From Gemmatimonadota bacterium (GTDB lineage Bacteria; Gemmatimonadota; Gemmatimonadetes; Gemmatimonadales; GWC2-71-9): a stretch of DNA of 50,705 nt. The position numbers were made by a program, and so were the translations under genes. The stretch covers positions 1 through 50,705 of the forward strand of contig JBGQJV010000002.1 in assembly GCA_041499215.1 (NCBI GenBank), read 5' to 3'. Shown here piece by piece: positions 2,604-47,896 of the stretch. Positions within the stretch are counted from its first letter, which is position 1. Each line of letters starts with the position of its first letter. A model generated the notes under the pieces. The model did no database searches and was not told where the DNA came from. It was given only the letters and a program-made list of their open reading frames with translations.

Positions 2604-2652
2604 CGGGCGGAAAGGCGGACGGGCGGGAGGGCGGGACGATGTTCAGAATGAC

Positions 2653-2682
2653 GAAACCCTCCGGTGCGAGCCGGAGGGTTTC
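2653..2682. terminator. Bidirectional hairpin between convergent genes
   Basis: Perfect 12-bp stem GAAACCCTCCGG / CCGGAGGGTTTC with a 6-nt loop. It has an AAA/TTT base, sits between the + gene ending at 2603 and the - gene ending at 2753, and is nested inside G-rich/C-rich repeat arms (2607-2618 / 2718-2729). Confidence 0.45.
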
Positions 2683-2752
2683 AAGTTCTAGGGAGCCACT
2701 GACCGCCTGTCCGCCTACCGCCTTCCCGCGACCGCGCGCTTTTGGGAGCGCG

Positions 2753-3778: not shown

Positions 3779-3786
3779 GTCGATCC

Positions 3787-3866
3787 GTTCCGCGTTCCGC
3801 GTTCCGGGTTCCACGTTGCGTAAGGATGGTTCATCAACGCGGAACGGGGAACGCGGAACGCGGAAC
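3787..3866. repeat. Heptamer-array hairpin (GTTCCGC)n / (GCGGAAC)n
   Basis: Left arm 3787-3818 pairs with right arm 3835-3866 at 29 of 32 positions, with a 16-nt loop. It fills the purA-stop (3868) to ypdA-start (3778) spacer. Confidence 0.85.
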
Positions 3867-7502: not shown

Positions 7503-7504
7503 GT

Positions 7505-7566
7505 GGCCGTTAGCCTCTTGGCCGTTAGCCGACTGGCCCTTGGCCATGGGCTACTGGCCGTTGGCC
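7505..7566. repeat. Single-arm array of GGCCGTT(A/G)GCC-type units
   Basis: GGCCGTTAGCC at 7505 and 7520, TGGCCCTTGGCC at 7534, TGGCCGTTGGCC at 7555. The same unit family occurs at 11095-11132 (inverted) and 17602-17625. Confidence 0.8.
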
Positions 7567-7600
7567 GCGAACACCCTTCTCACTGCTCACTTTTCACTTC

Positions 7601-8611
7601 TTACTTCTCCCCGCTGTCACCGTCCCCGGCCGCCAGAAACCCCATGCGCTCCCGAACCTCGCGCATCGTTTCCCGCGCCACCCGCCTGGCGCGGTGCGCG
7701 CCTTGGGCCAGGATCTCGATTACCCGCTCGGGATGGGCATGGAGGTCGGTGGCGCGTTCCCGGATCGGAGTCAGCGCCGCGATCATGTTATCGGCCAGCA
7801 CGCGCTTGCACTCAATGCACCCCCAGCGCGCGCCACGGCAGTTCACCGCCACGGTCTCCAGCGTCGCTGCCGGCGAGAAATGCTTGTGCAGTGCGTAGAT
7901 ATTGCATACGTCGGGGTTCCCCGGGTCTTTCTTGGTCACCCGGGCCGGATCGGTCTTGGCCGGCCGCAGCTTGGCCCAGATCTCCTCCGGAGTCTCCATG
8001 ATCCCGATGGTGTTGCCGAGGCTCTTGGACATCTTCGCCTCGCCGTCGAGCCCCATGATCCGCTTCGCCTCGGTCAGGAGTGGCTGAGGCTCCGCAAAGT
8101 AATCCTCCCCGCCGCCGAACTGGGCGTTCCACTTGCGACAGATCTCCCGGGTCAGCTCGAGGTGCTGCACCTGATCCTCACCCACGGGCACCAGGTCCGC
8201 GTGGTACAGCAGGATATCCGCGGCCATCAGCACGGGGTAGTTGAGCAGCCCGGCCGGGACACTCTCGAATCGGGTAGACTTATCTTTGAACTGCGTCATC
8301 CGCTCCAGCTCGCCGATCGGCGTCACGGCGTTGAAGAGCCACTGCAGCTCGGCGTGCTCGGGCACGTGCGACTGGACGAACAGGGTCGCCCGCGCCGGGT
8401 CGATTCCGGCGGCGAGCAGCCCTATGGCCATCTCCCAGGTCCGCTGGGCCAGCGTCGCCGCGTCGTACTTGCCGGTGATGGCATGGAGATCGACGATGCA
8501 GATGTAGCACTCATACGATTCCTGCAGTCGGACCCAATTCTGGACCGCGCCGAGCCAATTGCCGATGTGCAGCTCGCCGGAGGGTTGGATCCCGGAGAAG
8601 ATTCGGGGCAT
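7601..8611 (-). CDS. trpS: Tryptophan--tRNA ligase
   Basis: MPRIFSGIQPSGELHIGNWLGA (HIGN) and KMSKS motifs; class I TrpRS length. Confidence 0.95.
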   Translation of the reverse strand: MPRIFSGIQPSGELHIGNWLGAVQNWVRLQESYECYICIVDLHAITGKYDAATLAQRTWEMAIGLLAAGIDPARATLFVQSHVPEHAELQWLFNAVTPIGELERMTQFKDKSTRFESVPAGLLNYPVLMAADILLYHADLVPVGEDQVQHLELTREICRKWNAQFGGGEDYFAEPQPLLTEAKRIMGLDGEAKMSKSLGNTIGIMETPEEIWAKLRPAKTDPARVTKKDPGNPDVCNIYALHKHFSPAATLETVAVNCRGARWGCIECKRVLADNMIAALTPIRERATDLHAHPERVIEILAQGAHRARRVARETMREVRERMGFLAAGDGDSGEK

Positions 8612-9501: not shown

Positions 9502-10122
9502 ATGACCGAGACCATCGAGCAGTTCGGCAGGCAGGTTGCGGCTCCGACGCCAACTCCGGCGGGGGGCGCGGTAGCGGCGGTGGCCGCGAGTCTCGCCGCC
9601 GCCCTGGTCGAGATGGTCGGCCGGATCGGGCAGGCCAGGCAGCGGGACGGCTCGGAGAGCCTGACCCAGCTGGTGGAACAGGCGGAGCGGCTCCGTGGAA
9701 GGCTGCTGGAGCTTGCAGAGGAGGATTCGAAGGCCTTCGCTGCCGTGCTGGAGGCGAAGCGGTCCACAGCGGGCGGAGAGGCGGAGCGGGACACCCGAAT
9801 CCGGCGCGCGTGGCGCCATGCGGGACAGGTTCCGGCCGATGTGATCCGGTTGTGCCGGGAGATCGTCCAGCTGGCGAGAAGGGCGGCCCACGACGGGCCG
9901 CCCAGCACCATTGGCGACGCGGTCATGGCGGCGCTGCTGGCGGCCGCGGCGGCCGCCGGGTCCCATCTGAACCTGCGTTTCAATCTTGAGGCAGCGGGCC
10001 GCCCCGAGGACATGCGGGTGCTGGCCAACGACAGCGAAGTCCTGCTGCGCGATACGCAGAGGGCCGCGTCGGAGACGCGGCTGATTGCGGAAGAAAGGCT
10101 GGGCTCCAAACGTAAGACGTAA
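9502..10122 (+). CDS. Cyclodeaminase/cyclohydrolase family protein (FTCD C-terminal-like)
   Basis: MTETIEQFGRQVAAPTPTPAGGAVAAVAASLAAALVEMV.. is the all-helical pattern typical of formiminotransferase-cyclodeaminase C-domain proteins. The start is uncertain because there is no clear SD. Confidence 0.6.
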   Translation: MTETIEQFGRQVAAPTPTPAGGAVAAVAASLAAALVEMVGRIGQARQRDGSESLTQLVEQAERLRGRLLELAEEDSKAFAAVLEAKRSTAGGEAERDTRIRRAWRHAGQVPADVIRLCREIVQLARRAAHDGPPSTIGDAVMAALLAAAAAAGSHLNLRFNLEAAGRPEDMRVLANDSEVLLRDTQRAASETRLIAEERLGSKRKT

Positions 10123-10242
10123 GACGTAAGACGTGAGACGTGAGACGTGAGATGTGAGAGGAGAGGTGCCACTACCGGGCGTGGACTCCCACCGCCCAGG
10201 CGTCCCTGTGCACGGGCGCACGTCTTACGCCTCACCTCTCAC
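10111..10242. repeat. Heptamer array CGTAAGA x3, CGTGAGA x3, TGTGAGA, GGAGAGG plus a short inverted copy
   Basis: The array spans 10111-10166 and overlaps the last codons and stop (10120-10122) of the + gene. 10220-10229 is the exact complement of CGTAAGACGT. 10230-10242 complements 10154-10166 at 12 of 13 positions. The copy ends 1 nt before the map stop codon. Confidence 0.8.
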
Positions 10243-10243
10243 G

Positions 10244-10993
10244 TCAAACGGTCAGCAGCCTCGGCCCGTTCCCGGTAATAGCCACGGTGTGCTCGAAGTG
10301 AGCCGCCAGACTCCCGTCGGCGGTCACCACCGTCCATTTGTCGGGGAGGGTCCGGGTGGTATAGTGCCCGGCGGTGATCATCGGCTCGATGGCGATGGTC
10401 ATTCCCTCCAGCAAGCGGGGTCCGCGCTTCGGCTGGCCGTGGTTCGGGACCTGGGGCTCCTCGTGGAACTGGGTGCCGATGCCGTGACCCACCAGCTCGC
10501 GCACCACGCCGAACCCCGCGGCCTCCGCCACCTCCTGTATCGCGTGGCCGATGTCACCTACGTGGTTGCCCACGCGTGCCTGATCGATCCCTGCTGCGAG
10601 ACACTGCTGGGTCACCGCCAGCAGCCGGGTCGCCTCGGGCGAAACCTCGCCCACCGCCACCGTGGTGGCCGAGTCGGCATGCAGACCCTCGAGATGCACC
10701 CCGACGTCGATACTCACGATGTTGCCTTCCCGGAGCACCCGGCGGGCGTTCGGGATGCCGTGCACGATCTCTTCGTTGATCGAGGTGCAGAGGGTCTTGG
10801 GGAACCCGTACAGGCCCTTGAAGGACGGGGTCGCCCCGGGGTGGCTCCGGATGAACTCCTCGGCCAGCGTATCCAGCTCGAGGGTGCTGACCCCCGGCCG
10901 GACGGAGCGCCGCATCAGGGCAAGGGTCTCGGCGACGATATGGCCGGCTCGGGCCATCGTCTCGACTTCGCGGGGGGACTTGATGGTGATCAT
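10244..10993 (-). CDS. map: Type I methionine aminopeptidase
   Basis: MITIKSPREVETMARAGHIVAE.. with conserved D/D/H/E/E metal-ligand context. It follows adk in the spc cluster. Confidence 0.95.
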   Translation of the reverse strand: MITIKSPREVETMARAGHIVAETLALMRRSVRPGVSTLELDTLAEEFIRSHPGATPSFKGLYGFPKTLCTSINEEIVHGIPNARRVLREGNIVSIDVGVHLEGLHADSATTVAVGEVSPEATRLLAVTQQCLAAGIDQARVGNHVGDIGHAIQEVAEAAGFGVVRELVGHGIGTQFHEEPQVPNHGQPKRGPRLLEGMTIAIEPMITAGHYTTRTLPDKWTVVTADGSLAAHFEHTVAITGNGPRLLTV

Positions 10994-11010
10994 TGCGGGT
11001 GGCGGTCAGC

Positions 11011-11123
11011 CATTAGCCATTAGCCGCTAGCCATTAGCTGCAGCCCAGTTCGTCGGGGACGCAGTAGGAAGTCCGCAGTCTTGCGCACCATGAAAGCTAA
11101 CGGCTAAAGGCCAACGGCTATGG
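11011..11123. repeat. Heptamer-array hairpin (AGCCATT)n / (GGCCAAC, GGCTAAC)n
   Basis: 11011-11039 pairs with 11095-11123 at 22 of 29 positions, with a 55-nt loop. It fills the adk-stop (11142) to map-start (10993) spacer. Confidence 0.7.
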
Positions 11124-11141
11124 CCAACGGCCCACCAGACC

Positions 11142-11746: not shown

Positions 11747-11846
11747 CGTCATCCTGAGAGCCTGTCCCGAGCGAAGCGAGGGAAGCGAAGCGACGAAGGA
11801 TCCCTTTCGGTCCGGCAAGGGATCCCTCGCTGCGCTCGGGATGACG
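11747..11846. repeat. REP-like composite extragenic palindrome
   Basis: CGTCATCCTGAG..CCCGAGCGAAGCGAGGGA (11747-11783) is mirrored by TCCCTCGCTGCGCTCGGGATGACG (11823-11846). An inner 9-bp stem GGATCCCTT / AAGGGATCC is at 11798-11806 / 11817-11825. It lies between secY and adk. Confidence 0.7.
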
Positions 11847-13182: not shown

Positions 13183-13637
13183 TCGACGGCGATCTTCCCG
13201 CCGGCCTGTTCGATCTTCGTGCGCGCCGAGGCGGAGAGCTTCACGCCGTGCACGGCGTACGCCCGCGCCACCTCGCCGGTCCCCAGCAGTTTCACGGGGA
13301 CGTCGCGCTTGGAGATCAGACCTGCGGCGAACAGGGTATCCGGGTTGACCTCGGTGGCGCTGAGGCCGGCGAGGTCCTTCAGGTTCACCGGCTGGGCGGT
13401 CACCTTGAACGGATTGGTGAAGCCGCGCTTGGGCAGCCGCCGGTACATCGGCATCTGCCCGCCTTCGAAGCCGGGATTCGTCTCACCCGCCTGCCGGGCC
13501 TTGTGACCCTTGTTGCCGCGGCCGGCGGTCTTGCCCTTGCCGGAACCGGGGCCGCGACCGACCCGCTTGCTGGTCTTGGACGCGCCGCGGGCCGGCCGGA
13601 GCGTCGACAGCGTCACCGGACTCGTCTTGTCCGCCAT
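13179..13637 (-). CDS. rplO: 50S ribosomal protein L15
   Basis: ..RVGRGPGSGKGKTAGRGNKG.. motif and spc operon position. Confidence 0.97.
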   Translation of the reverse strand: MADKTSPVTLSTLRPARGASKTSKRVGRGPGSGKGKTAGRGNKGHKARQAGETNPGFEGGQMPMYRRLPKRGFTNPFKVTAQPVNLKDLAGLSATEVNPDTLFAAGLISKRDVPVKLLGTGEVARAYAVHGVKLSASARTKIEQAGGKIAVE

Positions 13638-16107: not shown

Positions 16108-16135
16108 GTAGCGCCGCACAGCTGTGCGGCGCTAC
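16108..16135. repeat. Perfect 28-nt palindrome GTAGCGCCGCACAG|CTGTGCGGCGCTAC (CAGCTG-centred family, copy 1)
   Basis: Self-complementary. Located in the rplE-stop / rpsN-start spacer. Confidence 0.9.
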
Positions 16136-17601: not shown

Positions 17602-17688
17602 GGCCGCTGGCCGTTGGCCGTTGGTCGTTCGCCCTGCTCCAGCCAATGCCCCAGCCGCGGTCCCGCCAGCGGCTAATGGCCAATGGCC
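17602..17688. repeat. Heptamer-array hairpin (GGCCGTT)n / (AATGGCC)n
   Basis: 17602-17625 pairs with 17665-17688. Of 24 positions, 18 are Watson-Crick, 5 are G.U (plus-strand sense) and 1 is a mismatch. It runs from the rpsQ stop codon to 13 nt upstream of the rplN ATG. Confidence 0.75.
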
Positions 17689-17978: not shown

Positions 17979-18010
17979 CGGTCCGCCGGTCCGACGGTCC
18001 GCCGGTCCGC
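17979..18010. repeat. Single-arm array of CGGTCCGC-type octamers
   Basis: CGGTCCGCCGGTCCGACGGTCCGCCGGTCCGC sits between the rpmC stop and the rpsQ start. The same unit occurs at 36910-37057 and 46804-46868. Confidence 0.8.
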
Positions 18011-18205
18011 CTACTTCCCCAGCTCCTTCGCCCGGAGCAATGTCTTGACCCGGGCGATGTCCCGCCGCAGGTGGCGGAACCGCATCGGGTTCTCGATCGA
18101 CTCCGTGGCCGACCGGAACCGGAGCCGGAATCGCTCCTCGGTCAGTTCGGCCAGCTTCGCCTTGAGATCGTCCACCGACAGCTCGTGCAGGTTGGTCTCG
18201 GCCAT
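18011..18205 (-). CDS. rpmC: 50S ribosomal protein L29
   Basis: 64 aa, ..LSVDDLKAKLAELTEERFRLRF.. typical L29. Confidence 0.95.
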   Translation of the reverse strand: MAETNLHELSVDDLKAKLAELTEERFRLRFRSATESIENPMRFRHLRRDIARVKTLLRAKELGK

Positions 18206-18208
18206 CGC

Positions 18209-18622
18209 CTAGTCCTCCGTCCGCTTCACGAACCGGGTACGCACCGGCAGCTTGGCCGCGGCCAGCCCCAGCGACAGCTTCGCCAGGTCCACCGCCACGC
18301 CCTCCACCTCGAACAGCATCCGGCCCGGCTTGACCACGGCCACCCAGCCTTCCGGGTTGCCCTTGCCCTTCCCCATCCGGGTCTCGGCCGGCTTCTTGGT
18401 GATCGGCTTGTCCGGGAAGATCCGGATCCACACCTTGCCGCCCCGCTTCATCTCGCGGGTCATCGCGACACGGGCGGCCTCGATCTGCCGATTGCTGACC
18501 CAGCCCGGTTCCAGGCTCATCAGGCCGTACTCGCCAAAGGCCACCGAGTTGCCCCGGGTGGCGATTCCCTTGGTCCGGCCCTTGAACGTCTTGCGGAACT
18601 TGACGCGCTTCGGTGCCAGCAT
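18209..18622 (-). CDS. rplP: 50S ribosomal protein L16
   Basis: [16 protein letters not shown].. typical L16. Confidence 0.97.
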
Positions 18623-21129: not shown

Positions 21130-22010
21130 TACTTGCCCCCCTTCTTCTTGGGCGCGGATTTCTTGGCCGCCTTTGCCTTGGGCGCCGCCTTCTGGGCCTT
21201 CGGCTTGGCCGCCTTCTCCGCCTTCGGCTTGGCGGCCTTGGCCCGGGTCGCGGTTCTCTCCGCCCTGGCCGGCTTCCCCGCCTTGGCGGCCTTCGCGGCC
21301 TTGGGCTTCTCCGCCGTGGGCTTGACGGGCCGCGCAGCGCGCGGCGCCGGCGCCTCCCTGGGCACGGGCGTGAAGGTCCGCACGAAGGGCACCGCCGGCT
21401 CGCCCGCCAGCGCCGGCTCCTCGACCATCACCACCTCCGCCCAGATCACGTCGTAGGCCGAGGCTTCGTTGAACGGCAGCACATCCACCCGCGGCAGATT
21501 GCGGGCGCTCAGGTACAGCGCCTCGCTGACACCATGGGTGAGCACCAGCACCTTCCGCCCGGCCACGCCCAGCTTCTCCAGCAAGGCAACCAGGTCCCGG
21601 GTCTTCGGGCTCTGCTGCTCGAACCGCTCCACCACGTACAGGTTGCCCTCGGCGGCGCGCGCGTTGAGCGCGCTCTTGCGGGCGAGCTGCTTCACCTTGC
21701 GGGGGATGTCCAGCCGGTAGTCGCGCGGCTGCGGGCCGAACACCTTGCCGCCGCCGGGCCACAGCGGGGACCGGATCGAGCCCTGCCGGGCGCGGCCGGT
21801 GCCCTTCTGCTTCCACGGCTTCTGGTTGCCGCCGGACACGAAGCTCCGGGTCTTGGTGGCATGGGTGCCCTGGCGCTGGTTGGCCAGGTAGACCTTGACC
21901 GCCTCGTGCATGACCGGCCCGTTTACGGTGCCATCGAAGAAACCCTCCGGCAGCGCGAAGGCGGCGCTCTTCCGGGCGCCGGCCTGCGAGAAGTGCGGGG
22001 CCTCAATCAT
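21129..22010 (-). CDS. rplD: 50S ribosomal protein L4 with a ~90-aa Ala/Lys/Pro-rich C-terminal extension
   Basis: Core ..[25 protein letters not shown].. followed by the tail ..[55 protein letters not shown]. Confidence 0.95.
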
Positions 22011-22626
22011 GGCGGCTCCTGCCGTGCTGCTTGTTGACGAGCAGGATGCCGTGTTTTGCGCCGGGGACCGCGCCCCGCACGAACAGCAGATTCCGCTCGG
22101 CGTCTACCTTCACCACCCGGAGCCCGAGCTCGGTGTGCCGCTCGGCGCCCATGTGGCCCGGCATCCGCTTTCCCTTGATGACGCGGGAGGGGTCGGTCCC
22201 GGGGGAAATCGAGCCCGGCTTGCGGTGCCGGGTGTTGCCGTGGCTCGCAGGACCGCCGCCGGCGCCATACCGGTGGACCATGCCCTGGAACCCGCGGCCC
22301 TTGGTGGTGCCGGTCACCTTCACCAGCTCGCCCGCCGCGAAGATCCCCACGGTCACCGTGTCGCCCGGCTTGTAGCTCGCCTCGCCGGCGCCGAATTCCT
22401 TGAGGATCTTCGGCGCCGCATCCACCGTGGCGGCCTTGGCATGACCCAGCTCCGCCCTGGTGCTTCGCTGCGCCAGCTTGGCGCCGAAGCCCAGCTGTAC
22501 CGCGCCCGACTTCACCTGCAGCACGCGGCAGGGGCCGGCCTCGATCACCGTCACCGGGACCGAGGTGCCGTCCTCCGCGAACACGCGGGTCATGCCGAGC
22601 TTCTTCCCGATCAGTCCGTTGGCCAT
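22003..22626 (-). CDS. rplC: 50S ribosomal protein L3
   Basis: [16 protein letters not shown].. typical L3. Confidence 0.97.
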
Positions 22627-22955: not shown

Positions 22956-23037
22956 GAGACGGTCGGGACGGTCGGGGCGGTCGGGACGGACCGCGCATCC
23001 GGTCCATCTCGTCCGTCTCGTCCGTCTTGTCCGTCTC
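22956..23037. repeat. Nonamer-array hairpin (GGTCGGGAC)n / (CTCGTCCGT)n
   Basis: 22956-22992 pairs with 23001-23037. Of 37 positions, 28 are Watson-Crick, 5 are G.U (plus-strand sense) and 4 are mismatches. It fills the tuf-stop / rpsJ-start spacer. Confidence 0.75.
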
Positions 23038-23042
23038 GTCCC

Positions 23043-24242
<1,200 letters not shown>

Positions 24243-24262
24243 ACGATCCTCGGGGCTTAAGA

Positions 24263-24371
24263 GCTATGAGCTATGAGCTATGAGCTATGGTCTGTCCTGC
24301 ATCGCCGTCCGCCGGGCCTGGCTACGATGGCCGCTCCTGGTCGGAGCGGCTCATAGCTCACAGCTCATAGC
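24263..24371. repeat. Heptamer-array hairpin (GAGCTAT)4 / (ATAGCTC)3 with a nested inner hairpin
   Basis: 24263-24285 pairs with 24349-24371 at 22 of 23 positions. The inner 8-bp stem GCCGCTCC / GGAGCGGC is at 24330-24350. It fills the fusA-stop / tuf-start spacer. Confidence 0.85.
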
Positions 24372-24383
24372 CCGGCGGCCGGC

Positions 24384-26480
<2,097 letters not shown>

Positions 26481-27979: not shown

Positions 27980-30900
27980 CTAGGGCCCGGTCCGCGCCTG
28001 CAGGATATACCGCCCCGTACTCCCGCTGTCCCGGGTGATCAGCAGGTAGTAGGTGCCCGGTGTGAGGGTTTGCGAGATCCGCGAGCAGAAGTCCCGCCCG
28101 TTCACATCGATGTCGATCGAATTACCGAGGCTGTTCTGGGTCTGATCTCTGAGTTCGAGGATCATGTCCAGGTCCAGCGCAAACCCGCAGAAGGCGCCGA
28201 ACCAGCCCGAGGTCTCGAAGGTGTAGGTCCCGGTGACGGGAATCTGGATCTGGTACACGTCAGTCTGGTCGGTGGCACTCAGACCGCCCTGCACCGCACC
28301 ATCGACGGTCAGCCGGTTGGCCGTTGCGGCCACATCGTTCGACTCCTCCTCCGACGGGAAACCGGCCGTGAAGGCGGCGAACCCGCCGACCGTTCCCGAC
28401 ACCGCCACTGCCGTCGGAGAGGAAACCCCGCCGAACGCCCCGAACCGCCTGCCGGGGATGCCGATCTGGCCGTCGCCAGCTTCATCCTCTCCCGCCACGA
28501 CGTAGTAGCTGCCGTCCGGCAGGGCGCTCAGCGTGTAGTTGGCCCCGCTGGCCGCCACCGTCGCCGCAACGGCTCCGGTCGCGGCGTTGATCGCGCGCAC
28601 GAACAGCTGCCGGCTCGGCGCCGCCGTCTGGGTCAGGGCATTACGGGCGTTGACAATGCCGGGTCCGATCTGTTCCCCGGGATCGATCGGAGTGGCGTAG
28701 GTGATCAGCCGCGTCCGGAGCTGGGCTGGAGTGAGGCTCGGATCCTGCGCGAGCAGCAGGGCCGCTACCCCCGAGACATGCGGCGCCGCCATCGAGGTCC
28801 CGGTGTAGAACGCGTGATTGGGCGTGCAAGCCGCCGAGGGGTTGAGATCTAGCGGGGTGAAATCGCAGGTAGACGAAGCCACCCCGGACGAGGCGAGCTG
28901 CGGCGATCCGAAGTCCCCCCCCGGGGCGGCGAGGTCGACGAAGCTGCCGAAGTTGGAGTAGGAGGTACGGTGTCCGGTGGGACCAACCGCGCCGACGGCG
29001 AGGACTTCCGGATACGCCGCGGGGCACGGCGCGGTAGACGAAGCCTCGTTGCCCGCCGAGACCACCACCAGAACGCCGCCGTTGGGGAGCCCTGGATCGG
29101 TCACGGTCTGCACCGCCGTGTGCAGCGGGTCGGGCCCGGTGATGCAGCCGCCACCCAGACTCATGTTGATGATCCGGGCCGGCTGTGCCGGCCCGGGGAG
29201 CACTCCGCCGGAGCCGTCGTCCGAGGGCATGCCGGCCGCGTACAGCACTCCCTGGGCGATGTCGAAGTAGCTCCCGCCGTCGATGCCGAGCACCCGGACC
29301 GGCCGGATGCTCACGGTCCAGTTCACCCCGAGCACCGCGATCCCGTCATTGCCCTTGGCCCCGATGGTGCCTGAGACATGGGTGCCATGGCTGCCGAGGG
29401 TGCTTCGGGCACAGGGTGCGCCGGTGCTTGGTTCGGCCTCGCGGTCGTCCGGCGTACTGGGGTCGGCATCGTAGCCGTCACCATCACCGGAATTGTTGAT
29501 CGTGCCGCCGCCCTGGGTGGCGCAGAGAGTAACGTTGCTGCTACTTACAAAATCGCGGCCATCGTTGCGGAAGTTTCCCCCGCCCGTGGCCGCCGTGGCA
29601 CCCGCGGCCCCCACCGACGGGTGGTGGAACACCACCCCGTTGTCCAGCACCGCCACAATGACGCTTGCCGAGCCGGTGGTGATGGACCACGCCCGTGGCA
29701 GATCGATCATCGAGTAGTGCCACGACTGGATCGGGAAGAAGGGGTCGTTGGGAATGGTCCCCGGACGCACCGGGCCGGCGTCCGATCGGAGCCACCCGTT
29801 CCGCCCGACCGATTCCACCGCCGGATCCTGCGCCAGGGCCTGCGCCACCGAGTCCATTCTGGCGGGGTCGGCGACCTTGATCTTTGCGGTTCGGATCACT
29901 GGCGACACGCCGGCGATCGTCACCTTGCCCGACAGCGCGTGGGGCGCGAGTTGCTGCCGGATCGCCTGGGCCAGCACCAGCGCGGTCGGGAGCGCAGCCA
30001 TCGCCCGGACCCCAGCGGGGGCGCTGATCGCGCTGCGCTTCATTACCACCAGCAGTTCGTCTGGCACGTAATGGGGACTCAGACCGGACCGCCGCACCCC
30101 CGTCAACGCCGGTAGTGCCGCCTCGGCCCGCTGCCGGGTACTTGCCCGAAGACCGGCGGTGCTTCGCACCCCTCCCACCCGCGCCATCCTGATGCTGCTC
30201 AGGACCGAGTCCGACAGCGCCACCGTACCGATGATCGTGGAGGGTGGCACCACCACCGCAGTCGCCGACAGCGTCACGCTGGTCGGAGAGGTACCCGCGT
30301 TCGAGGCCGTCACGCTCTGGCCTCCCGCCCCGGCCCCGAGAGTCCAGCCGGTGGTCGCCAGGCCGTTTCCGTCGGTGAGACTTGCCGTCTGGGTGAGGCT
30401 GCCACCGCCGGTGGCGACCGCCCAGGTCACCGGCACCTTGGAGATGTTCTGTGCGGTGGCGGTGCGGACCCGGACGCTGAGGGCGGTACCGAGCGCGGCG
30501 CCACCCGGCGCGGTCTGTCCATCACCGCCGGCCACGGCAAGAGTCACCCCGGCGCCCAGGGTCGCCTGGGCTGTTACGGTGGCGGTGACGCCCCCGGCGG
30601 TGGCGGTCACGGAATGCCCGTTGCCGAACTCGAGCCCGAGGGTCCAGGTCGCGGAGGCGCGCCCCTGCCCATCGGTCGTGGCCTGCGCACCGGCCAGCGA
30701 ACCGCCTCCACCGGTGACGGTCCAGGTCACCGCGGCACCATTCACCACGTTGTTGAACGCATCCCGGAACTCGGCGACCACCGGTTGGGCGAGTGCCGTG
30801 CCAACTACCCCGGACTGGGCACCACCCTGAACCACCGTGCCGCTCGCCACCGGGGCGGCGGTCACGCTCGCTGAAAACGTCGCTGGAGTGGTCACCCCGG

Positions 30901-31246
30901 AGACGCTGGCGGTCGCGGTGTTGGCCGTCCCGACTGCGGTCCCCACGGTCCAGCTCGTGGCGGCCTGGCCCTGGGCGTTGGTGCTCACCGTGGTGGCCTG
31001 GAGGGTCCCGCCACCGGCAGTCACCGCGAAGGTCACGTCGACGCCTTGCAGCCCGTCGCCCTGCTTGTCGTTGACCTGCACAGTCAGCGGCAGGCCCAGC
31101 GCGGCGCCAGCGGCGCCCGTCTGGTTGTTGCCTGTGATGATGACGACGACGGTGGGGGTGCGACTGGGTTCGTTGCTGCTGCCGCAAGCGGACAGGATCA
31201 CGCCGGCAGCAAGGAGGCCCAACCAATTGTGGATTCGCATGCCCAA
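27980..31246 (-). CDS. Secreted/lipoprotein subtilisin-family (S8) serine protease with N-terminal Ig-like repeats and a C-terminal PPC-like domain
   Basis: Lipobox ..AGVILSAC. Three ~85-aa repeats (..[13 protein letters not shown].., ..[13 protein letters not shown].., ..[13 protein letters not shown]..). Catalytic triad context VAVLDNGV / [11 protein letters not shown] / [17 protein letters not shown]-terminal ..[17 protein letters not shown].. Confidence 0.85.
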
Positions 31247-31400
31247 TCTTTACACCGAATTGGCTCCTCGGCTAGCCCACCCCCGGCTGTTCCAGAAGTG
31301 CCTCCCGGGATGACCCTCTGGCCGGCTTCCGTCATGACGGGTCATATTCAGCGTCTGCCAGTGGCGCGGGCGGCGCCGTTCACCATCCTGAGGAGGCCGC

Positions 31401-32264
31401 ATGCGGTGGAACCGTGGTCCGATGAGCGACAACATCGAGGACATGCGGGGCCAGGGCGGCGGTCGGCGTCCGGGCGGCATGCGGCTCGGCCTGGGTGGAA
31501 TGCTGCTGCTCTTGATTCTGAGCATCGTCTTCAGGCGGGATTTCTTCTCGCTCATCGGCGGAGCCGATGGAATGCAGGCCGGCGCGCCCGCAGGCGCCGG
31601 CCTCTCCCCCGAAGCGCAGGCTCATGAAGACTCGCTCGCATCTCTGGTCTCCGCCGTGCTCGACAGCGCCCAGGGCGAGTGGGCCGCCATCCTCCCCAGA
31701 CTGGGCGTACAATACCGGCCGGCCAAGCTGGTCCTCTTTCGCGACGCGATCCAGTCGGCCTGCGGGTTTGCCGAGTCGGCGACCGGCCCGTTCTACTGCC
31801 CGGGGGATGAGAAGGTCTACATCGACCTCGGGTTCTATGACGAGCTGACCAGCCGCTTCGGCGCCGCCGGCGAGTTCGCCGAGGCCTACGTCCTGGCGCA
31901 CGAGCTCGGCCACCATGTACAGAACCTGCTCGGCATCGAGCAACAGGTGCGCCAGGCGCAACAGCGCCGGCCGGCGGCCAGGAACGACCTTTCGGTTCGC
32001 CTGGAACTGCAGGCAGACTGTTTCGCCGGAGTGTGGGGCGCCGACTATCAGGCCAAGGGCGGGTTGGAGGCGGGGGACCTCGAGGAGGGCATGCGGGCGG
32101 CGGCGGCGGTAGGCGACGACCGGATCCAGAAGATGTCTCAAGGCTACGTGAACCCCGAGGGATTCACCCACGGGAGTTCCGCCCAGCGGGAGCACTGGTT
32201 CCACCAGGGGTTCGAGACCCACGATCCCAAGCAGTGCGATACGTTCGGAGCGGGGAAACTGTAG
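31401..32264 (+). CDS. ypfJ: YpfJ-family neutral zinc metallopeptidase
   Basis: N-terminal TM segment; ..GPFYCPGDEKVYIDLGF.., HELGHHVQ zinc motif, ..LELQADCFAGVWG.. Confidence 0.8.
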   Translation: MRWNRGPMSDNIEDMRGQGGGRRPGGMRLGLGGMLLLLILSIVFRRDFFSLIGGADGMQAGAPAGAGLSPEAQAHEDSLASLVSAVLDSAQGEWAAILPRLGVQYRPAKLVLFRDAIQSACGFAESATGPFYCPGDEKVYIDLGFYDELTSRFGAAGEFAEAYVLAHELGHHVQNLLGIEQQVRQAQQRRPAARNDLSVRLELQADCFAGVWGADYQAKGGLEAGDLEEGMRAAAAVGDDRIQKMSQGYVNPEGFTHGSSAQREHWFHQGFETHDPKQCDTFGAGKL

Positions 32265-32374
32265 GCGGGCGAGGCGGGCAGGCGGGCGGGCGAAAATGCC
32301 GCGGGCGAGAGATGAAATTCGTCTCTCGCCCGCTGCATTTCCCCGCCGCTTCCGCCCTGCCCGCCCCGTCCGCC
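32264..32374. repeat. G-rich/C-rich repeat-arm hairpin (GGCGGGC units) enclosing a bidirectional terminator
   Basis: 32264-32282 pairs with 32356-32374 across 19 positions, with 1 mismatch and 1 G.U. It lies between the convergent ypfJ-like gene and rpoC. Confidence 0.7.
32301..32333. terminator. Bidirectional terminator hairpin (rpoC / ypfJ-like)
   Basis: Perfect 12-bp stem GCGGGCGAGAGA / TCTCTCGCCCGC with a 9-nt loop. It is followed by GGCAUUUUCG on the minus strand and UGCAUUUCC on the plus strand. Confidence 0.55.
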
Positions 32375-36909: not shown

Positions 36910-37057
36910 CGGACGGGCGGACCGGCGGACCGGCGGACGCAGAGTGTCTCCTCACATTGCGCCCTGAGTTCTCGGCCTACCTGCCCAACCTGTCCCGTCT
37001 AGTAACTCGCTATTGCCTCGGATCGGCCGTCCGCCGGTCCGCCGGTCCGTCTGTCCG
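36910..37057. repeat. Octamer-array hairpin (GGACCGGC)n / (GCCGGTCC)n in the rpoB-rpoC spacer
   Basis: 36910-36939 pairs with 37028-37057 as a 30-bp stem (21 consecutive perfect pairs at 36919-36939 / 37028-37048, plus 2 G.U). The loop is 88 nt. Confidence 0.85.
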
Positions 37058-37062
37058 CCCGC

Positions 37063-44814: not shown

Positions 44815-44923
44815 TCAGCCGTCAGCCATCAGTCTAGAGCCTTCAGCGGTCCGACGCGGGATCGGGTGGCGTTGCCCGATTCGGCGGGCCATCAACCGGT
44901 GAGGGCTGACGGCTGACGGCTGA
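44815..44923. repeat. Heptamer-array hairpin (CAGCCGT)n / (GCTGACG)3
   Basis: 44815-44827 pairs perfectly (13 bp) with 44911-44923. The stem extends to 21 positions with 1 mismatch and 2 G.U. It lies between tRNA-Thr(GGU) and rpmG. Confidence 0.75.
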
Positions 44924-44937
44924 CGGCTACTCCCCAG

Positions 44938-45142: not shown

Positions 45143-45148
45143 GAAACA

Positions 45149-45248
45149 AGGCGGAAGGGCGGCAAGGCGGGAGGGCGGCATGCCCGGTCGTCCAGTCAGC
45201 CATCCACCGCCACTCGCCAGCTCCACCGGCGTCCCGCCCTTCCGCCTT
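45149..45248. repeat. Repeat-arm hairpin (AAGGCGG/AGGGCGG units) in the tRNA-Gly / tRNA-Tyr spacer
   Basis: 45149-45163 (AAGGCGGAAGGGCGG) pairs perfectly with 45234-45248. The same unit family occurs at 2605-2636. Confidence 0.75.
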
Positions 45249-45259
45249 CCCGCCTAACA

Positions 45260-46340: not shown

Positions 46341-47896
46341 ATCCGGCGCACCTCGACAGTGCCGTCCTTGTTGTCCCGCACCTCCCAGCCAGCGGCGTTG
46401 AGCAGGTCGCGGATGCGGTCTGCTTCCTTATAGTCCCGGCGGCGTTTGGCCTCGGAGCGGAGCCGCGCCCAAGCCTTTGCCCAACCTTCTTGCTCATCCC
46501 TGCCCTCGGGGGCAGCAGAGGACAGAGAGTCAGCGCGCGTTTTATCGCTCAGGACGATCGAGTCGGTGAGCGTTACCGATAAAACGCGCGCTGCTTCCCC
46601 TCCTGGCAAAACGTCTAGCACTCCGATCAGCTTGTTCCACACCCCCATCCCCGCCTGGCCCGGCAGCTCCCCTTCATCGAGCAACCGGTTCCCGTCCCGC
46701 ACCGCGTCGAACAGCGCGGCAACCGCCTTCGGAGCGTTCAGATCCTCATCGAGAGCTTCGCGGACAGAGAGCTCGAGTCTCCGACTCCACTCCTGCCATC
46801 CTTCCGCCGGTCCGCCGGTCCGCCCGTCCGCCCGCCCGCCGGTCCGCCCGTCCGCCGGTCCGCCCGCCTTCCTGAGCCGGGCATCGAACTCCCCCAGCCG
46901 CCGGCTCCCCTCCCGCGCCCCCTCGAGGGCCTTGTCGGTCAGATCCATCTTCTGCCGGTAGTGGGTACTGAAGACCAGCAATCGGATTGCCCCGGGATCC
47001 ACTCCATCCTCCCGCAGATCCCGCGGGGTGGTGACGTTGCCGTAGCGCTTCGACATCTTTGTGCCGCGGATGCTCAGGAACTCCCCGTGCACCCAGTAGC
47101 GGGCGAACAGGTCCTTGCCGGTGTGAGCGCAGGACTGCGCGATCTCGTCCTCGTGATGCGGGAAGATCAGGTCTACCCCGCCGGCATGGATGTCGAGCAT
47201 GTCAACCCCGTAGTGGCGGCCGATGAGGTCGAGCGCCATGGCCGAGCACTCGATGTGCCACCCAGGCCTTCCCCGGCCGAAGGGGGCATCCCAGGCCGCG
47301 CCGACCTTTTCGTCCTCCTCCTTCGCGGCCTTCCACAGGACAAAGTCCCGGGCATTCTCCTTGTCGTACTCGTCCGCCAATACCCGGCCGCTGGCTCCGG
47401 CCTTGAGTTCACGCTTGTCGAGCTGCGACAGGCGGCCGTAGGCCGGGAACTTCGCGATGGAGAAGTAGACCGAGCCATCCTCACCCCGGTAGGCCACCCC
47501 CTTGTCCAGCAGCGACTGGATCAGCGCCACCATCGGCCTGATGAACTCGGTGGCCCTCGGGTACTCGTGGGCCCTCCGGATGCGCAACCAGTCGCAGTCC
47601 TCGAAGAAGGCCCGGGCGAAAGGTTCAGTGTGCAGCTTGAGTGGCTGACCGGCCGCGAGCGCGCCGCGAATGGTCTTGTCGTCCACATCCGTCAGATTCA
47701 TGATGTGGAACACCTCGTAGCCGCTGGCCTCCAGCCAGCGGCGCAGCAGATCCTCGAACAGGAACGTCCGGAAGTTCCCGATGTGGGCGAAGTTGTAGAC
47801 CGTGGGCCCGCAGGTGTACATCGCCAACCGCCCGGGCTTTAGCGGAGCGAACTCCTCGACCTGGCGGGTCAGGGTGTTGTAGAGGCGGAGCGGCAT
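46337..47896 (-). CDS. cysS: Cysteine--tRNA ligase (with a repeat-encoded insertion and a C-terminal extension)
   Basis: MPLRLYNTLTRQVEEF..CGPTVYNFAHIGN.. and KMSKRYGN. ATG 47896 chosen. 519 aa. Confidence 0.95.
   Translation of the reverse strand: MPLRLYNTLTRQVEEFAPLKPGRLAMYTCGPTVYNFAHIGNFRTFLFEDLLRRWLEASGYEVFHIMNLTDVDDKTIRGALAAGQPLKLHTEPFARAFFEDCDWLRIRRAHEYPRATEFIRPMVALIQSLLDKGVAYRGEDGSVYFSIAKFPAYGRLSQLDKRELKAGASGRVLADEYDKENARDFVLWKAAKEEDEKVGAAWDAPFGRGRPGWHIECSAMALDLIGRHYGVDMLDIHAGGVDLIFPHHEDEIAQSCAHTGKDLFARYWVHGEFLSIRGTKMSKRYGNVTTPRDLREDGVDPGAIRLLVFSTHYRQKMDLTDKALEGAREGSRRLGEFDARLRKAGGPADGRTGGRADGRTGGPAEGWQEWSRRLELSVREALDEDLNAPKAVAALFDAVRDGNRLLDEGELPGQAGMGVWNKLIGVLDVLPGGEAARVLSVTLTDSIVLSDKTRADSLSSAAPEGRDEQEGWAKAWARLRSEAKRRRDYKEADRIRDLLNAAGWEVRDNKDGTVEVRRI
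46804..46868. repeat. CCGGTCCG/CCCGTCCG octamer array inside the cysS coding sequence
   Basis: Encodes [22 protein letters not shown] in frame. 19 nt (46804-46822) are identical to 37031-37049 in the rpoB-rpoC spacer hairpin. Confidence 0.85.

Follow-up and report, generated by a model that had tools for sequence, protein, structure and literature searches.

Mirrored tandem arrays of 7-9-nt units form hairpins in the fusA-tuf spacer and in other intergenic spacers of a Gemmatimonadota clade

The stretch of DNA considered here (the window) comprises 50,705 nucleotides (nt), positions 1 to 50,705 of contig JBGQJV010000002.1 from a Gemmatimonadota bacterium (assembly GCA_041499215.1). Its G+C content is 67%, and its ribosomal-protein, tuf, fusA and rpoBC genes are all located on the minus strand. 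The spacer between fusA and tuf is occupied by a long hairpin whose arms are tandem arrays of a heptamer. The best-supported account of this hairpin is that it represents one copy of a population of mirrored arrays that is both genome-wide and clade-wide. Each element of this population would have two arms in inverted orientation, each with about four tandem copies of a 7-9-nt unit, placed around a locus-specific core that is often a small hairpin or a terminator. The fusA-tuf locus is composed of the following features.

23043-24242, minus strand: tuf.
24243..24383, minus strand: fusA-tuf spacer of 141 nt, fold -73.2 kcal/mol, z = -4.75.
24261-24289: arm of (GAGCTAT)x4.1 with 100% matches (Tandem Repeats Finder), corresponding to the 3' arm, (AUAGCUC)n, of the sense strand.
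24330-24350: inner 8-bp hairpin GCCGCTCC-TGGTC-GGAGCGGC, stacked directly on the long stem.
24349-24371: inverted arm of (GCTCATA)x3.3 with one unit variant (Tandem Repeats Finder).
24384-26480, minus strand: fusA.

Read on the sense strand, the stop codon is followed by 11 nt, the 5' arm, a core of 59-63 nt, the 3' arm, and 18 nt with a GAGGA ribosome-binding site that lead to the AUG. The 23-nt arms 24263-24285 and 24349-24371 are 96% complementary (22/23 pairs), and the lone mismatch of the stem is a G·U pair on the sense strand. An earlier reading made from the sequence only (the sequence-only reading) had described a (GAGCTAT)x4 arm with a mirrored partner and a nested 8-bp hairpin; the arms are borne out by Tandem Repeats Finder and an inverted-repeat search, and the nested hairpin is present as well. 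The energy of the sense-strand fold compares to -52.7 +/- 4.3 kcal/mol for 200 dinucleotide shuffles. Since independent metagenome contigs recover positions 24193-24753 with zero differences, the hairpin is not an assembly artefact.

The architecture is not restricted to this spacer. Ten further spacers of the window had been listed as sharing it, and all ten fold into long stems whose arms consist of tandem 7-9-nt units.

2605..2729, between convergent genes: octamer arms of the GGCGG type (GGGCGGAA x3.8 with its inverse) enclosing an inner hairpin that resembles a terminator (GAAACCCTCCGG...CCGGAGGGTTTC); z = -8.05.
3786..3866, minus strand: (CGTTCCG)x4.6 against (AACGCGG)x4.4, filling the spacer between purA and the next gene; 32-nt stem, 91% complementary, 16-nt loop; z = -8.24.
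10110..10250, between a convergent cyclodeaminase-like gene and map: (ACGTRAG)x7.1 against about 4 inverted units, with arms of unequal length; z = -4.0.
11008..11131, minus strand, adk-map spacer: (AGCCATT)x4.4 against an (AACGGCT / AAAGGCC) array; z = -5.3.
17602..17688, minus strand, rpsQ-rplN spacer: GGCCGTT / GCCATTR heptamer hairpin.
22956..23041, minus strand, tuf-rpsJ spacer: nonamer hairpin, (GACGGTCGG)x3.6 against (GTCCGTCTC)x4.4.
32264..32374, between the convergent Zn-peptidase gene and rpoC: arms of the GGCGGGC type, enclosing a perfect palindrome that resembles a terminator; z = -8.8.
36910..37059, minus strand, rpoB-rpoC spacer: (CGGACCGG)x3.6 against (GTCCGCCG)x3.9; 30-nt stem, 93% complementary, 88-nt loop; z = -5.2.
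44815..44928, minus strand, between a tRNA cluster and rpmG/secE: GCCGTCA-family heptamer hairpin, one arm being (TGACGGC)x4.1.
45147..45255, minus strand, between two tRNA genes: GGCGG-type octamer hairpin, CAAGGCGG x4.2 against TCCCGCCT x3.0.

The window thus holds eleven inverted array pairs in convergent orientation, with loops of 16-98 nt. Their arms are direct tandem arrays with an autocorrelation of 0.75-1.0 at period 7-8. Other arrays occur singly.

7504..7609, minus strand, upstream of pilT: two adjoining single arrays, (TGGCCGT)x8.9 and (CTTCTCA)x4.9.
17979..18011, minus strand, rpmC-rpsQ spacer: single-arm array (CGGTCCGC)x4.1 with no inverted partner; its unit is that of the rpoB-rpoC arms.
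46803-46866, in frame inside cysS: octamer array (TCCGCCGG)x7.8, again with the unit of the rpoB-rpoC arms.

The cysS array shows no length variation in three same-species metagenome populations, and several substitutions are clustered just upstream of it (46778-46803).

To quantify the structures, inverted repeats were counted as ungapped arms of at least 18 nt with at least 80% complementarity and a loop of at most 200 nt. Hairpins were detected by a seed-and-extend inverted-repeat search combined with arm autocorrelation; pairing of units from Tandem Repeats Finder only recovered 4 of the 11. The window contains 12 inverted repeats, compared to a mean of 1.64 in 100 dinucleotide shuffles, and 7 of the periodic-arm type, compared to 0.01. 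The sequence-only reading had proposed such a comparison for the whole genome; the frequency in the window is far above chance. Of the 31 spacers that measure 40 nt or more, 11 have the architecture, with fold z-scores from -1.9 to -8.8, and the z-scores of the remaining spacers are near 0. None of the three divergent (promoter) spacers in the window harbors such a hairpin. The intergenic 8% of the window contains 18 arrays with periods of 7-9, whose copy number has a median of 4.1 (interquartile range 3.4-4.4), whereas the periods of coding arrays are mainly multiples of 3. As a separate observation on coding repeats, rplD (21184-21304) carries a C-terminal extension rich in Lys, Ala and Pro that is built from 18- and 24-nt tandem repeats; the length of the L4 protein ranges from 285 to 296 amino acids across relatives of the clade, and rplD differs by a 9-nt indel from that of the relative L162 introduced below.

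In co-directional spacers the stem begins 1-11 nt past the stop codon and stops 8-18 nt short of the next start codon, leaving a GAGG-type ribosome-binding site outside. The span from stop codon to ribosome-binding site that had been described earlier therefore holds, but the description of the hairpins as lying inside operons does not hold for all of them, because three are located between convergent genes (2607, 10111 and 32264) and one between two tRNA genes (45149); the others lie between genes of the same direction. The operon-internal hairpins are not intrinsic (Rho-independent) terminators, since no U-tract follows the intra-operon stems, and a terminator and promoter scan flags no hairpin in the window. 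Short A/T-tract flanks are found only at the inner hairpins of the convergent sites 2607 and 32264. A search of the window against Rfam returned four tRNAs only and matched no hairpin, and the window contains no rRNA gene. Next to the convergent site 32264, the region 27980-32264 between rpoC and rpsL encodes a 1088-residue S8 subtilase with Big_1 domains as well as the convergent Zn-metallopeptidase gene, an insertion whose synteny is kept in most of the close relatives that were fetched.

The arrays appear to draw on a limited number of unit families, which are found again at many loci around a different core each time. The octamer GGCGGACC is found at three loci of the window, namely in the rpoB-rpoC arms, in the single array between rpmC and rpsQ, and in the array within cysS (permutation P = 0.008). 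Sharing of heptamer units between loci of the window is weak (permutation P ~0.05-0.15). We note that unit sharing was judged by a permutation test, because single-linkage clustering chains by chance: at a distance of at most 1, and considering rotations and both strands, it links about 2% of random heptamer pairs. Further evidence is provided by metagenome contigs. At the organism's own sequencing depth, contigs attach GGCGG-type arms to other loops of 10, 13 and 22 nt, the 10-nt and 22-nt loops being those around which the arms of the 45147..45255 hairpin recur elsewhere in the genome. In several contigs, a match to the GTTCCGC, ACGTRAG or GGCGG arms gives way to unrelated sequence. Loose contig ends at 3786 and 3868 likewise indicate that the arms of the 3786..3866 hairpin are also present elsewhere. 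The same arms are therefore found elsewhere in the genome around different cores.

Unit families are also shared across the clade. GCCRTCA and AGTGAGA units recur at non-orthologous spacers, and GAGCTAT, the unit of the fusA-tuf spacer, is 1-2 substitutions away from a clade-wide CAGCCRT family. The fusA-tuf spacer of L162, the closest relative, is an intermediate: its 5' arm consists of CAGCCRT and its 3' arm of the complement of CAGCTAT, compared to GAGCTAT on both arms in the window. The units had been described as locus-specific, which is correct in so far as many different units exist, but not in view of the octamer at three loci, of arms that recur with other loops, and of families common to several spacers of the clade. 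Arrays of GCCGTCA with up to 13 units are also found in 39 viral contigs (L171-L209, IMG/VR), all of them single-arm. These viral arrays, most of which proceed in whole 21-nt (three-unit) steps, possibly represent in-frame heptapeptide repeats and not hairpin arms.

Arrays come, go or switch unit between close relatives. The close relatives considered here are ten contigs (L161-L170) with an identical S10 protein, a shared gene order and 82-94% nucleotide identity. Nearly all of them have the architecture, but in other spacers or with other units than the window.

fusA-tuf spacer: 141 nt in the window (GAGCTAT), 133 nt in L162, 51-52 nt without hairpin in L163, L165 and L167, 22 nt in L161, 13 nt in L168 and L170.
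tuf-rpsJ spacer: nonamer hairpin in the window and L162; GCCRTCA heptamer hairpin in L163-L168 and L170.
rpsQ-rplN spacer: GCCATTR-type hairpin in the window and L161 (GCCATTN in L161); GCCRTCC on both arms in L168 and L170; plain palindrome in L162; REP-like (repetitive extragenic palindrome-like) GC hairpins in L163, L165 and L167.
rplE-rpsN spacer: AGTGAGA hairpins in L162, L168 and L170; GCGGTRA in L167; single (GGAGTAA)n array in L163 and L165; plain palindrome in the window.
rpmC-rpsQ spacer: 126-nt GCCGTCA hairpin in L162, compared to the single array in the window.

Some spacers hold other kinds of repeat. The plain palindrome of the window in the rplE-rpsN spacer (16108-16135, GTAGCGCCGCACAGCTGTGCGGCGCTAC) is GC-rich and centred on CAGCTG; the rpsQ-rplN palindrome of L162 (15402-15443, TGCGCGCACAGCTGTGCGCGCG) resembles it, and both spacers hold tandem-arm hairpins in other members of the clade. 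The rpsQ-rplN spacers of L163 (15191-15348), L165 (15195-15262) and L167 (15275-15407) contain two alternating small GC hairpins, GGGGCGACCCTCGTGGTCGCCC and GGGCGGGCACAAGGCCCGCCC, which in up to three repeats and in the manner of bacterial interspersed mosaic elements (BIME) replace the tandem-arm hairpin. In L163 (16800-16845) and L165 (16701-16750) the array (GGAGTAA)x6-7 is located directly upstream of the rpsN start and thereby provides 6-7 tandem Shine-Dalgarno-like AGGAG motifs; it has no inverted partner.

Beyond the clade the distribution is patchy. Periodic-arm inverted repeats are absent from the same region of twelve other Gemmatimonadota (L001-L013; 67-85% FusA identity), where the spacers measure 0-72 nt (fusA-tuf), 0-18 nt (rpsQ-rplN) and 17-74 nt (rpoB-rpoC), compared to 141, 100 and 169 nt, respectively, in the window. 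For example, the rpoB-rpoC spacer of the distant relative L001 has 58 nt with just a small GGCGGTCCGCC hairpin. Among 160 FusA-anchored loci of diverse bacteria (2.26 Mb), 16 contain at least one such hairpin and 6 contain two or more. Contigs of Acidobacteriota belong to these: in L021 the unit CGATTGA is found at five spacers with unrelated loops, and others have diverse heptamers or GTTGCTRA arms. The Thermoanaerobaculia contig L025 harbors GTTGCTRA / GTTGCCNR octamer-arm hairpins (18495-18563 and 22445-22501) that match the class 1 consensus GTTGCTYN of Geobacter metallireducens, which belongs to a different phylum.

How the arrays change can be read from comparisons at two distances. The arrays gain and lose whole units by replication slippage, and they diverge several times faster than synonymous sites. 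The same-species comparison covers about 47 kb against metagenome populations, which otherwise differ by scattered single-base changes only. Three same-species populations (three runs) show a gain of one unit, +7 nt (ACTTCTC) at 7602, in the (CTTCTCA) array upstream of pilT, and one population (one run) shows a loss of one unit, -9 nt at 32263. Unit-wise slippage is directly visible, because the only differences in array length are whole units; in neither case is there a matching change in the partner arm. Compared to L162, third codon positions of the flanking genes are 90-92% identical, whereas the fusA-tuf spacer is about 60% identical, still recognizably homologous (z = 6.6), and the spacer between rpoC and the Zn-peptidase gene about 63%; for the tuf-rpsJ hairpin the identity is 88%. 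Where the window and L162 differ by large indels, these are all located in spacers, mostly in tandem-repeat arms or other spacer repeats.

At the level of units, changes affect both arms. The rpsQ-rplN spacer has GCCATTR in the window and L161 compared to GCCRTCC in L168 and L170, and at fusA-tuf the CAGCCRT/CAGCTAT combination of L162 corresponds to GAGCTAT in the window. Such joint changes point either to shared descent with copying from arm to arm or to some selection for overall complementarity. The comparison of orthologous spacers that the sequence-only reading had suggested thus finds units changing on both arms together, but no base-by-base compensation in the tuf-rpsJ hairpins. A similar division applies to its proposal of local generation by slippage plus fold-back copying: unit-sized indels substantiate slippage, and fold-back copying stays conjectural; a mirror order of variant units is not seen in the arms inspected (10110 and 17602). 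Seeding of the arrays from the local stop-codon context (TGAGC) or from an ancestral CTGAYNGC motif was considered as well; it is suggestive only, and the arm order in L162 contradicts a simple expansion in situ.

These observations are most readily combined in a scheme in which the elements would be made and kept at the level of DNA, as mirrored arrays of long simple sequence repeats (SSRs) that grow by slippage and are tolerated where they are folded between a stop codon and the next ribosome-binding site. We regard this scheme as evenly poised between right and wrong. Repeated slippage would spread a unit variant through an arm, resulting in concerted evolution, and the likeness of the two arms would be maintained by common descent together with occasional copying from arm to arm, by intrastrand template switching or gene conversion. 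Purifying selection may leave arrays only where they are harmless, past a stop codon but ahead of the ribosome-binding site that follows, and folding of the insert would keep the stop codon and the next start site near each other. In mRNA the arrays would necessarily form very stable stems, and any role of these stems at the RNA level, for instance in the protection of 3' ends or in processing by RNase III, would be a putative and secondary one.

Several points weigh against this scheme. Pure slippage from random local seeds cannot explain the recurrence of units at unrelated loci, be it the octamer at three loci of the window, GCCRTCA and AGTGAGA across the clade, or CGATTGA at five acidobacterial loci. 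Slippage also leaves the arm length of about four units in very different organisms unexplained, as well as the patchy distribution, with none in the twelve other Gemmatimonadota and some Acidobacteriota rich in arrays. Together, unit recurrence, the four-unit length and patchiness hint at a trans-acting factor. In addition, copying from arm to arm is not directly seen in the sequences compared, and a role of the RNA in processing, stabilisation or coupling, which the mismatch and covariation tests described below do not support, is conceivable and possible.

A trans-acting factor is central to the first alternative, according to which the hairpins derive from a mobile or exchangeable element, as its ends or as remnants devoid of genes, and a trans-acting protein recognises the 7-9-nt word of that element. 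This could be a RAYT/REPIN-like system or cassettes of the PF05635 four-helix-bundle / 23S intervening sequence (23S-IVS) type, which would install and homogenise the arms as blocks of about four units at the 3' ends of genes. This alternative accounts for multi-copy arms with locus-specific cores (the GGCGG arms with 10-, 13- and 22-nt loops, the CGATTGA arms of L021), for unit families common to non-orthologous spacers, for the patchy distribution between lineages, and for stereotyped arms of about 4 units, as they are also found in Xanthomonas and Geobacter. Whole spacers are swapped between 94%-identical genomes, and in G. metallireducens insertion sequence (IS) elements lie at a constant distance from such sites (PMC2700814). 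However, within the window and L161-L170 no loop of 200-1200 nt between periodic arms is found to contain an open reading frame (ORF), be it of the PF05635 / 23S-IVS four-helix-bundle type or any other. Nor is a candidate gene seen in the window or in roughly 0.2 Mb of DNA from the clade; a RAYT (Y1 transposase) gene is likewise absent from the window. Many different units exist within one genome, single and unequal arms occur (for example 8 units against 4 at 10110), and a comparison of filled and empty fusA-tuf sites shows no visible target-site duplication. The unit-sized polymorphisms that we observe need no enzyme. We note that gene-less cassette remnants look the same as arrays of other origin. 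A mobile origin thus appears unlikely to us, but it stays alive because slippage alone leaves unit recurrence, the four-unit length and patchiness unexplained. Transposable elements of the miniature inverted-repeat type (MITEs) do not fit, as copies that share arms have unrelated loops and the fusA-tuf site has no target-site duplication.

A broader version of the same idea, which we advance as a long shot, is that the arrays are footprints of an active and hitherto undescribed DNA process that operates in unit register at gene 3' ends. A trans-acting protein or cassette system with its own word would install and homogenise both arms around whatever content the spacer has, in scattered lineages of many phyla, including this Gemmatimonadota clade, some Acidobacteriota, Geobacter metallireducens and Xanthomonas.

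The second alternative considers the hairpins as selected RNA elements of polycistronic mRNAs, serving as RNase III sites, as 3'-end stabilisers, or as holders of stop codon and ribosome-binding site; only the length of the stem would matter, and its sequence would drift. The position of the stems, with the ribosome-binding site left free, and their strongly negative fold z-scores agree with such a role, as does the fact that a hairpin is kept at tuf-rpsJ and rpsQ-rplN in most members of the clade despite unit changes, which moreover affect both arms. Runs of RNA data containing the fusA-tuf spacer itself were not found, and three soil metatranscriptomes contain only relatives of 90-95% identity. 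Contigs from these relatives cross the fusA-tuf and tuf-rpsJ junctions, with the intervening sequence unread, which suggests that their spacers are transcribed through. The sequences of the stems, however, argue in another direction. In 25 periodic stems of the clade, sense-strand mismatches amount to 16 G·U, 27 A·C and 30 other combinations, as compared to 566 Watson-Crick pairs, so that G·U is not more frequent than A·C. Within seven orthologous tuf-rpsJ hairpins, 0 of 27 pairs show compensatory double changes; the changes are one-sided or disrupt the pair, most of them doing the latter. The sense strand has the better minimum free energy in about half of the cases, so that several stems fold better on the antisense strand. 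The pattern of a covarying structured RNA is therefore not seen (there is also no Rfam family), and selection for a long stem regardless of sequence, as had been suggested earlier, finds no support. In addition, presence at a given spacer varies between 94%-identical genomes, with spacers of only 13-22 nt at the same junctions in relatives, and the architecture is the same between convergent genes and between tRNA genes, and single arms exist without a partner. The mismatches, the lack of compensation, the convergent, tRNA, single-arm and in-frame cysS sites, and the equal preference for both strands are the reasons to place the process at the level of DNA rather than of sense RNA. We consider selection on RNA as the principal cause to be improbable.

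The third alternative follows the proposal made for Geobacter metallireducens, namely that the arrays may be binding sites of a DNA-bending or global regulatory protein (IHF/HU-like). The layout is indeed that of the class 1-3 sites of this organism, with 3-5 tandem repeats of 7-9 nt that are paired across the two strands at varying distances. Against it speak the many unrelated units of a single genome, the 7-9-nt periods, which do not fit the helical repeat of DNA, rapid turnover, and a location at gene 3' ends and in operons but not in promoters (none of the three divergent spacers). The Geobacter precedent is itself a putative proposal; we judge binding sites of this kind to be a very doubtful explanation. 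That the structures arise by chance in GC-rich sequence or through faulty assembly, as a G+C content of 67% and a metagenome-derived genome might suggest, has been refuted already and retains practically no credibility, because the shuffles do not reproduce them, assemblies from other samples contain the exact sequence, and independently assembled relatives have the same architecture.

The sequence-only reading had regarded the architecture as unusual. It is, in fact, already described in the literature for Xanthomonas (PMC4692102) and Geobacter metallireducens (PMC2700814). The genomes of Xanthomonas campestris and X. axonopodis each contain 70-75 convergent inverted pairs of GGGAATC arrays that are able to form stem-loops or cruciforms (Rehm et al. 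2015, PMC4692102). Four units are preferred, which was explained by the formation of G-quadruplexes (G4), and the length of the repeats varies between related species while their type (single or paired) is usually kept (PMC4692102). The arrays described here share with these the 7-nt tandem units in about four copies and an intergenic position shortly after a stop codon, for the most part between genes that are co-directional or convergent and rarely between divergent ones. In contrast to the single G-tract consensus of Xanthomonas, we find at least 8 units, of which most are unable to form a G4 (GAGCTAT, AGCCATT, ACGTGAG), and also periods of 8 and 9. Heptamers of the G-quadruplex type can be dismissed, as GAGCTAT, CGTTCCG, ACGTGAG, AGCCATT and TGACGGC have no G3 tract, and the preference for four units in the present arrays is therefore not explicable by G4.

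In Geobacter metallireducens, the units of classes 1-3 are octa-, nona- or heptanucleotides (GTTGCTYN, TCTCCGTS[Y] and MTYCTGA), present in three to five tandem copies and paired on opposite strands at variable distance. These sites were read as binding sites of global regulators, and the 16-48 copies of each class conform to a single consensus (Aklujkar et al. 2009, PMC2700814). Similar to the present case, several classes coexist in one genome, the sites are intergenic and also found inside operons (proB-proA in Geobacter), and a close relative lacks them (G. sulfurreducens). The units of the present arrays are far more diverged between loci, and unit-sized polymorphism as well as divergence faster than that of synonymous sites is seen here; both readings, ours and that for Geobacter, are putative.

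Heptamers in the short tandemly repeated repetitive (STRR) sequences of cyanobacteria were reportedly described by Mazel et al. in 1990. More generally, long prokaryotic SSRs have units of 5-11 nt, heptamers being the commonest, with polymerase slippage as the proposed source (Mrazek et al. 2007, as cited in PMC4679880 and PMC4692102). A lineage-specific excess of 7-nt tandem repeats in non-coding DNA is common to these and the present arrays, but the descriptions, as related in these later papers, are of direct arrays and do not include a mirrored layout around a core.

A REP unit is itself an imperfect palindrome, and each REP family has one conserved consensus. REP, BIME and REPIN elements resemble the present hairpins in being intergenic, hairpin-forming, multi-copy and located behind genes, and inverted doublets of about 100 nt are possible; they differ in that the arms described here are direct tandem arrays, not palindromes of 20-40 nt with a family consensus, and the cores are unrelated, so that REP/REPIN is rejected as an identity. 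The clade does have REP-like GC hairpins, which are separate and look different: those of the rpsQ-rplN spacers of L163, L165 and L167, and an inverted pair in the adk-secY spacer of the window (11765-11841; TCCCGAGCGAAGCGAGGGA against TCCCTCGCTGCGCTCGGGA, 19 nt, 95% complementary). The latter repeat appears to be multi-copy, with loose metagenome contig ends at 11816 and 11846, and in L162, the relative of 94% identity, an insertion of 59 nt upstream of rplV includes a copy (13316-13374). Intervening sequences of 23S rRNA and PF05635 cassettes differ from the present elements as well, in that no loop here contains an ORF and the window has no rRNA gene.

The present arrays are a further case of a known, unexplained class, in a new phylum and with more diverged units, and what relatives and populations reveal here about changes in the arrays goes beyond the Xanthomonas and Geobacter papers. 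Long repeats of the heptamer type are a long noticed and unexplained feature of some bacterial genomes. The clade constitutes a natural experiment for such repeats: along the conserved ribosomal-protein operons of eleven genomes, hairpins appear, vanish or switch unit while the flanking genes are 94-100% identical. The fastest mutations are indels of whole units, and the arms change jointly by unit, not base by base. Since about four units are preferred even among units that cannot form a G4, the one rationale published for this number falls away. Between cistrons of the most highly expressed operons, stems of -50 to -90 kcal/mol are tolerated, which bears on ideas about translational coupling and mRNA processing. 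If the arrays were footprints of an active DNA process, the hairpins of the ribosomal-protein operons would be its neutral or co-opted by-products.

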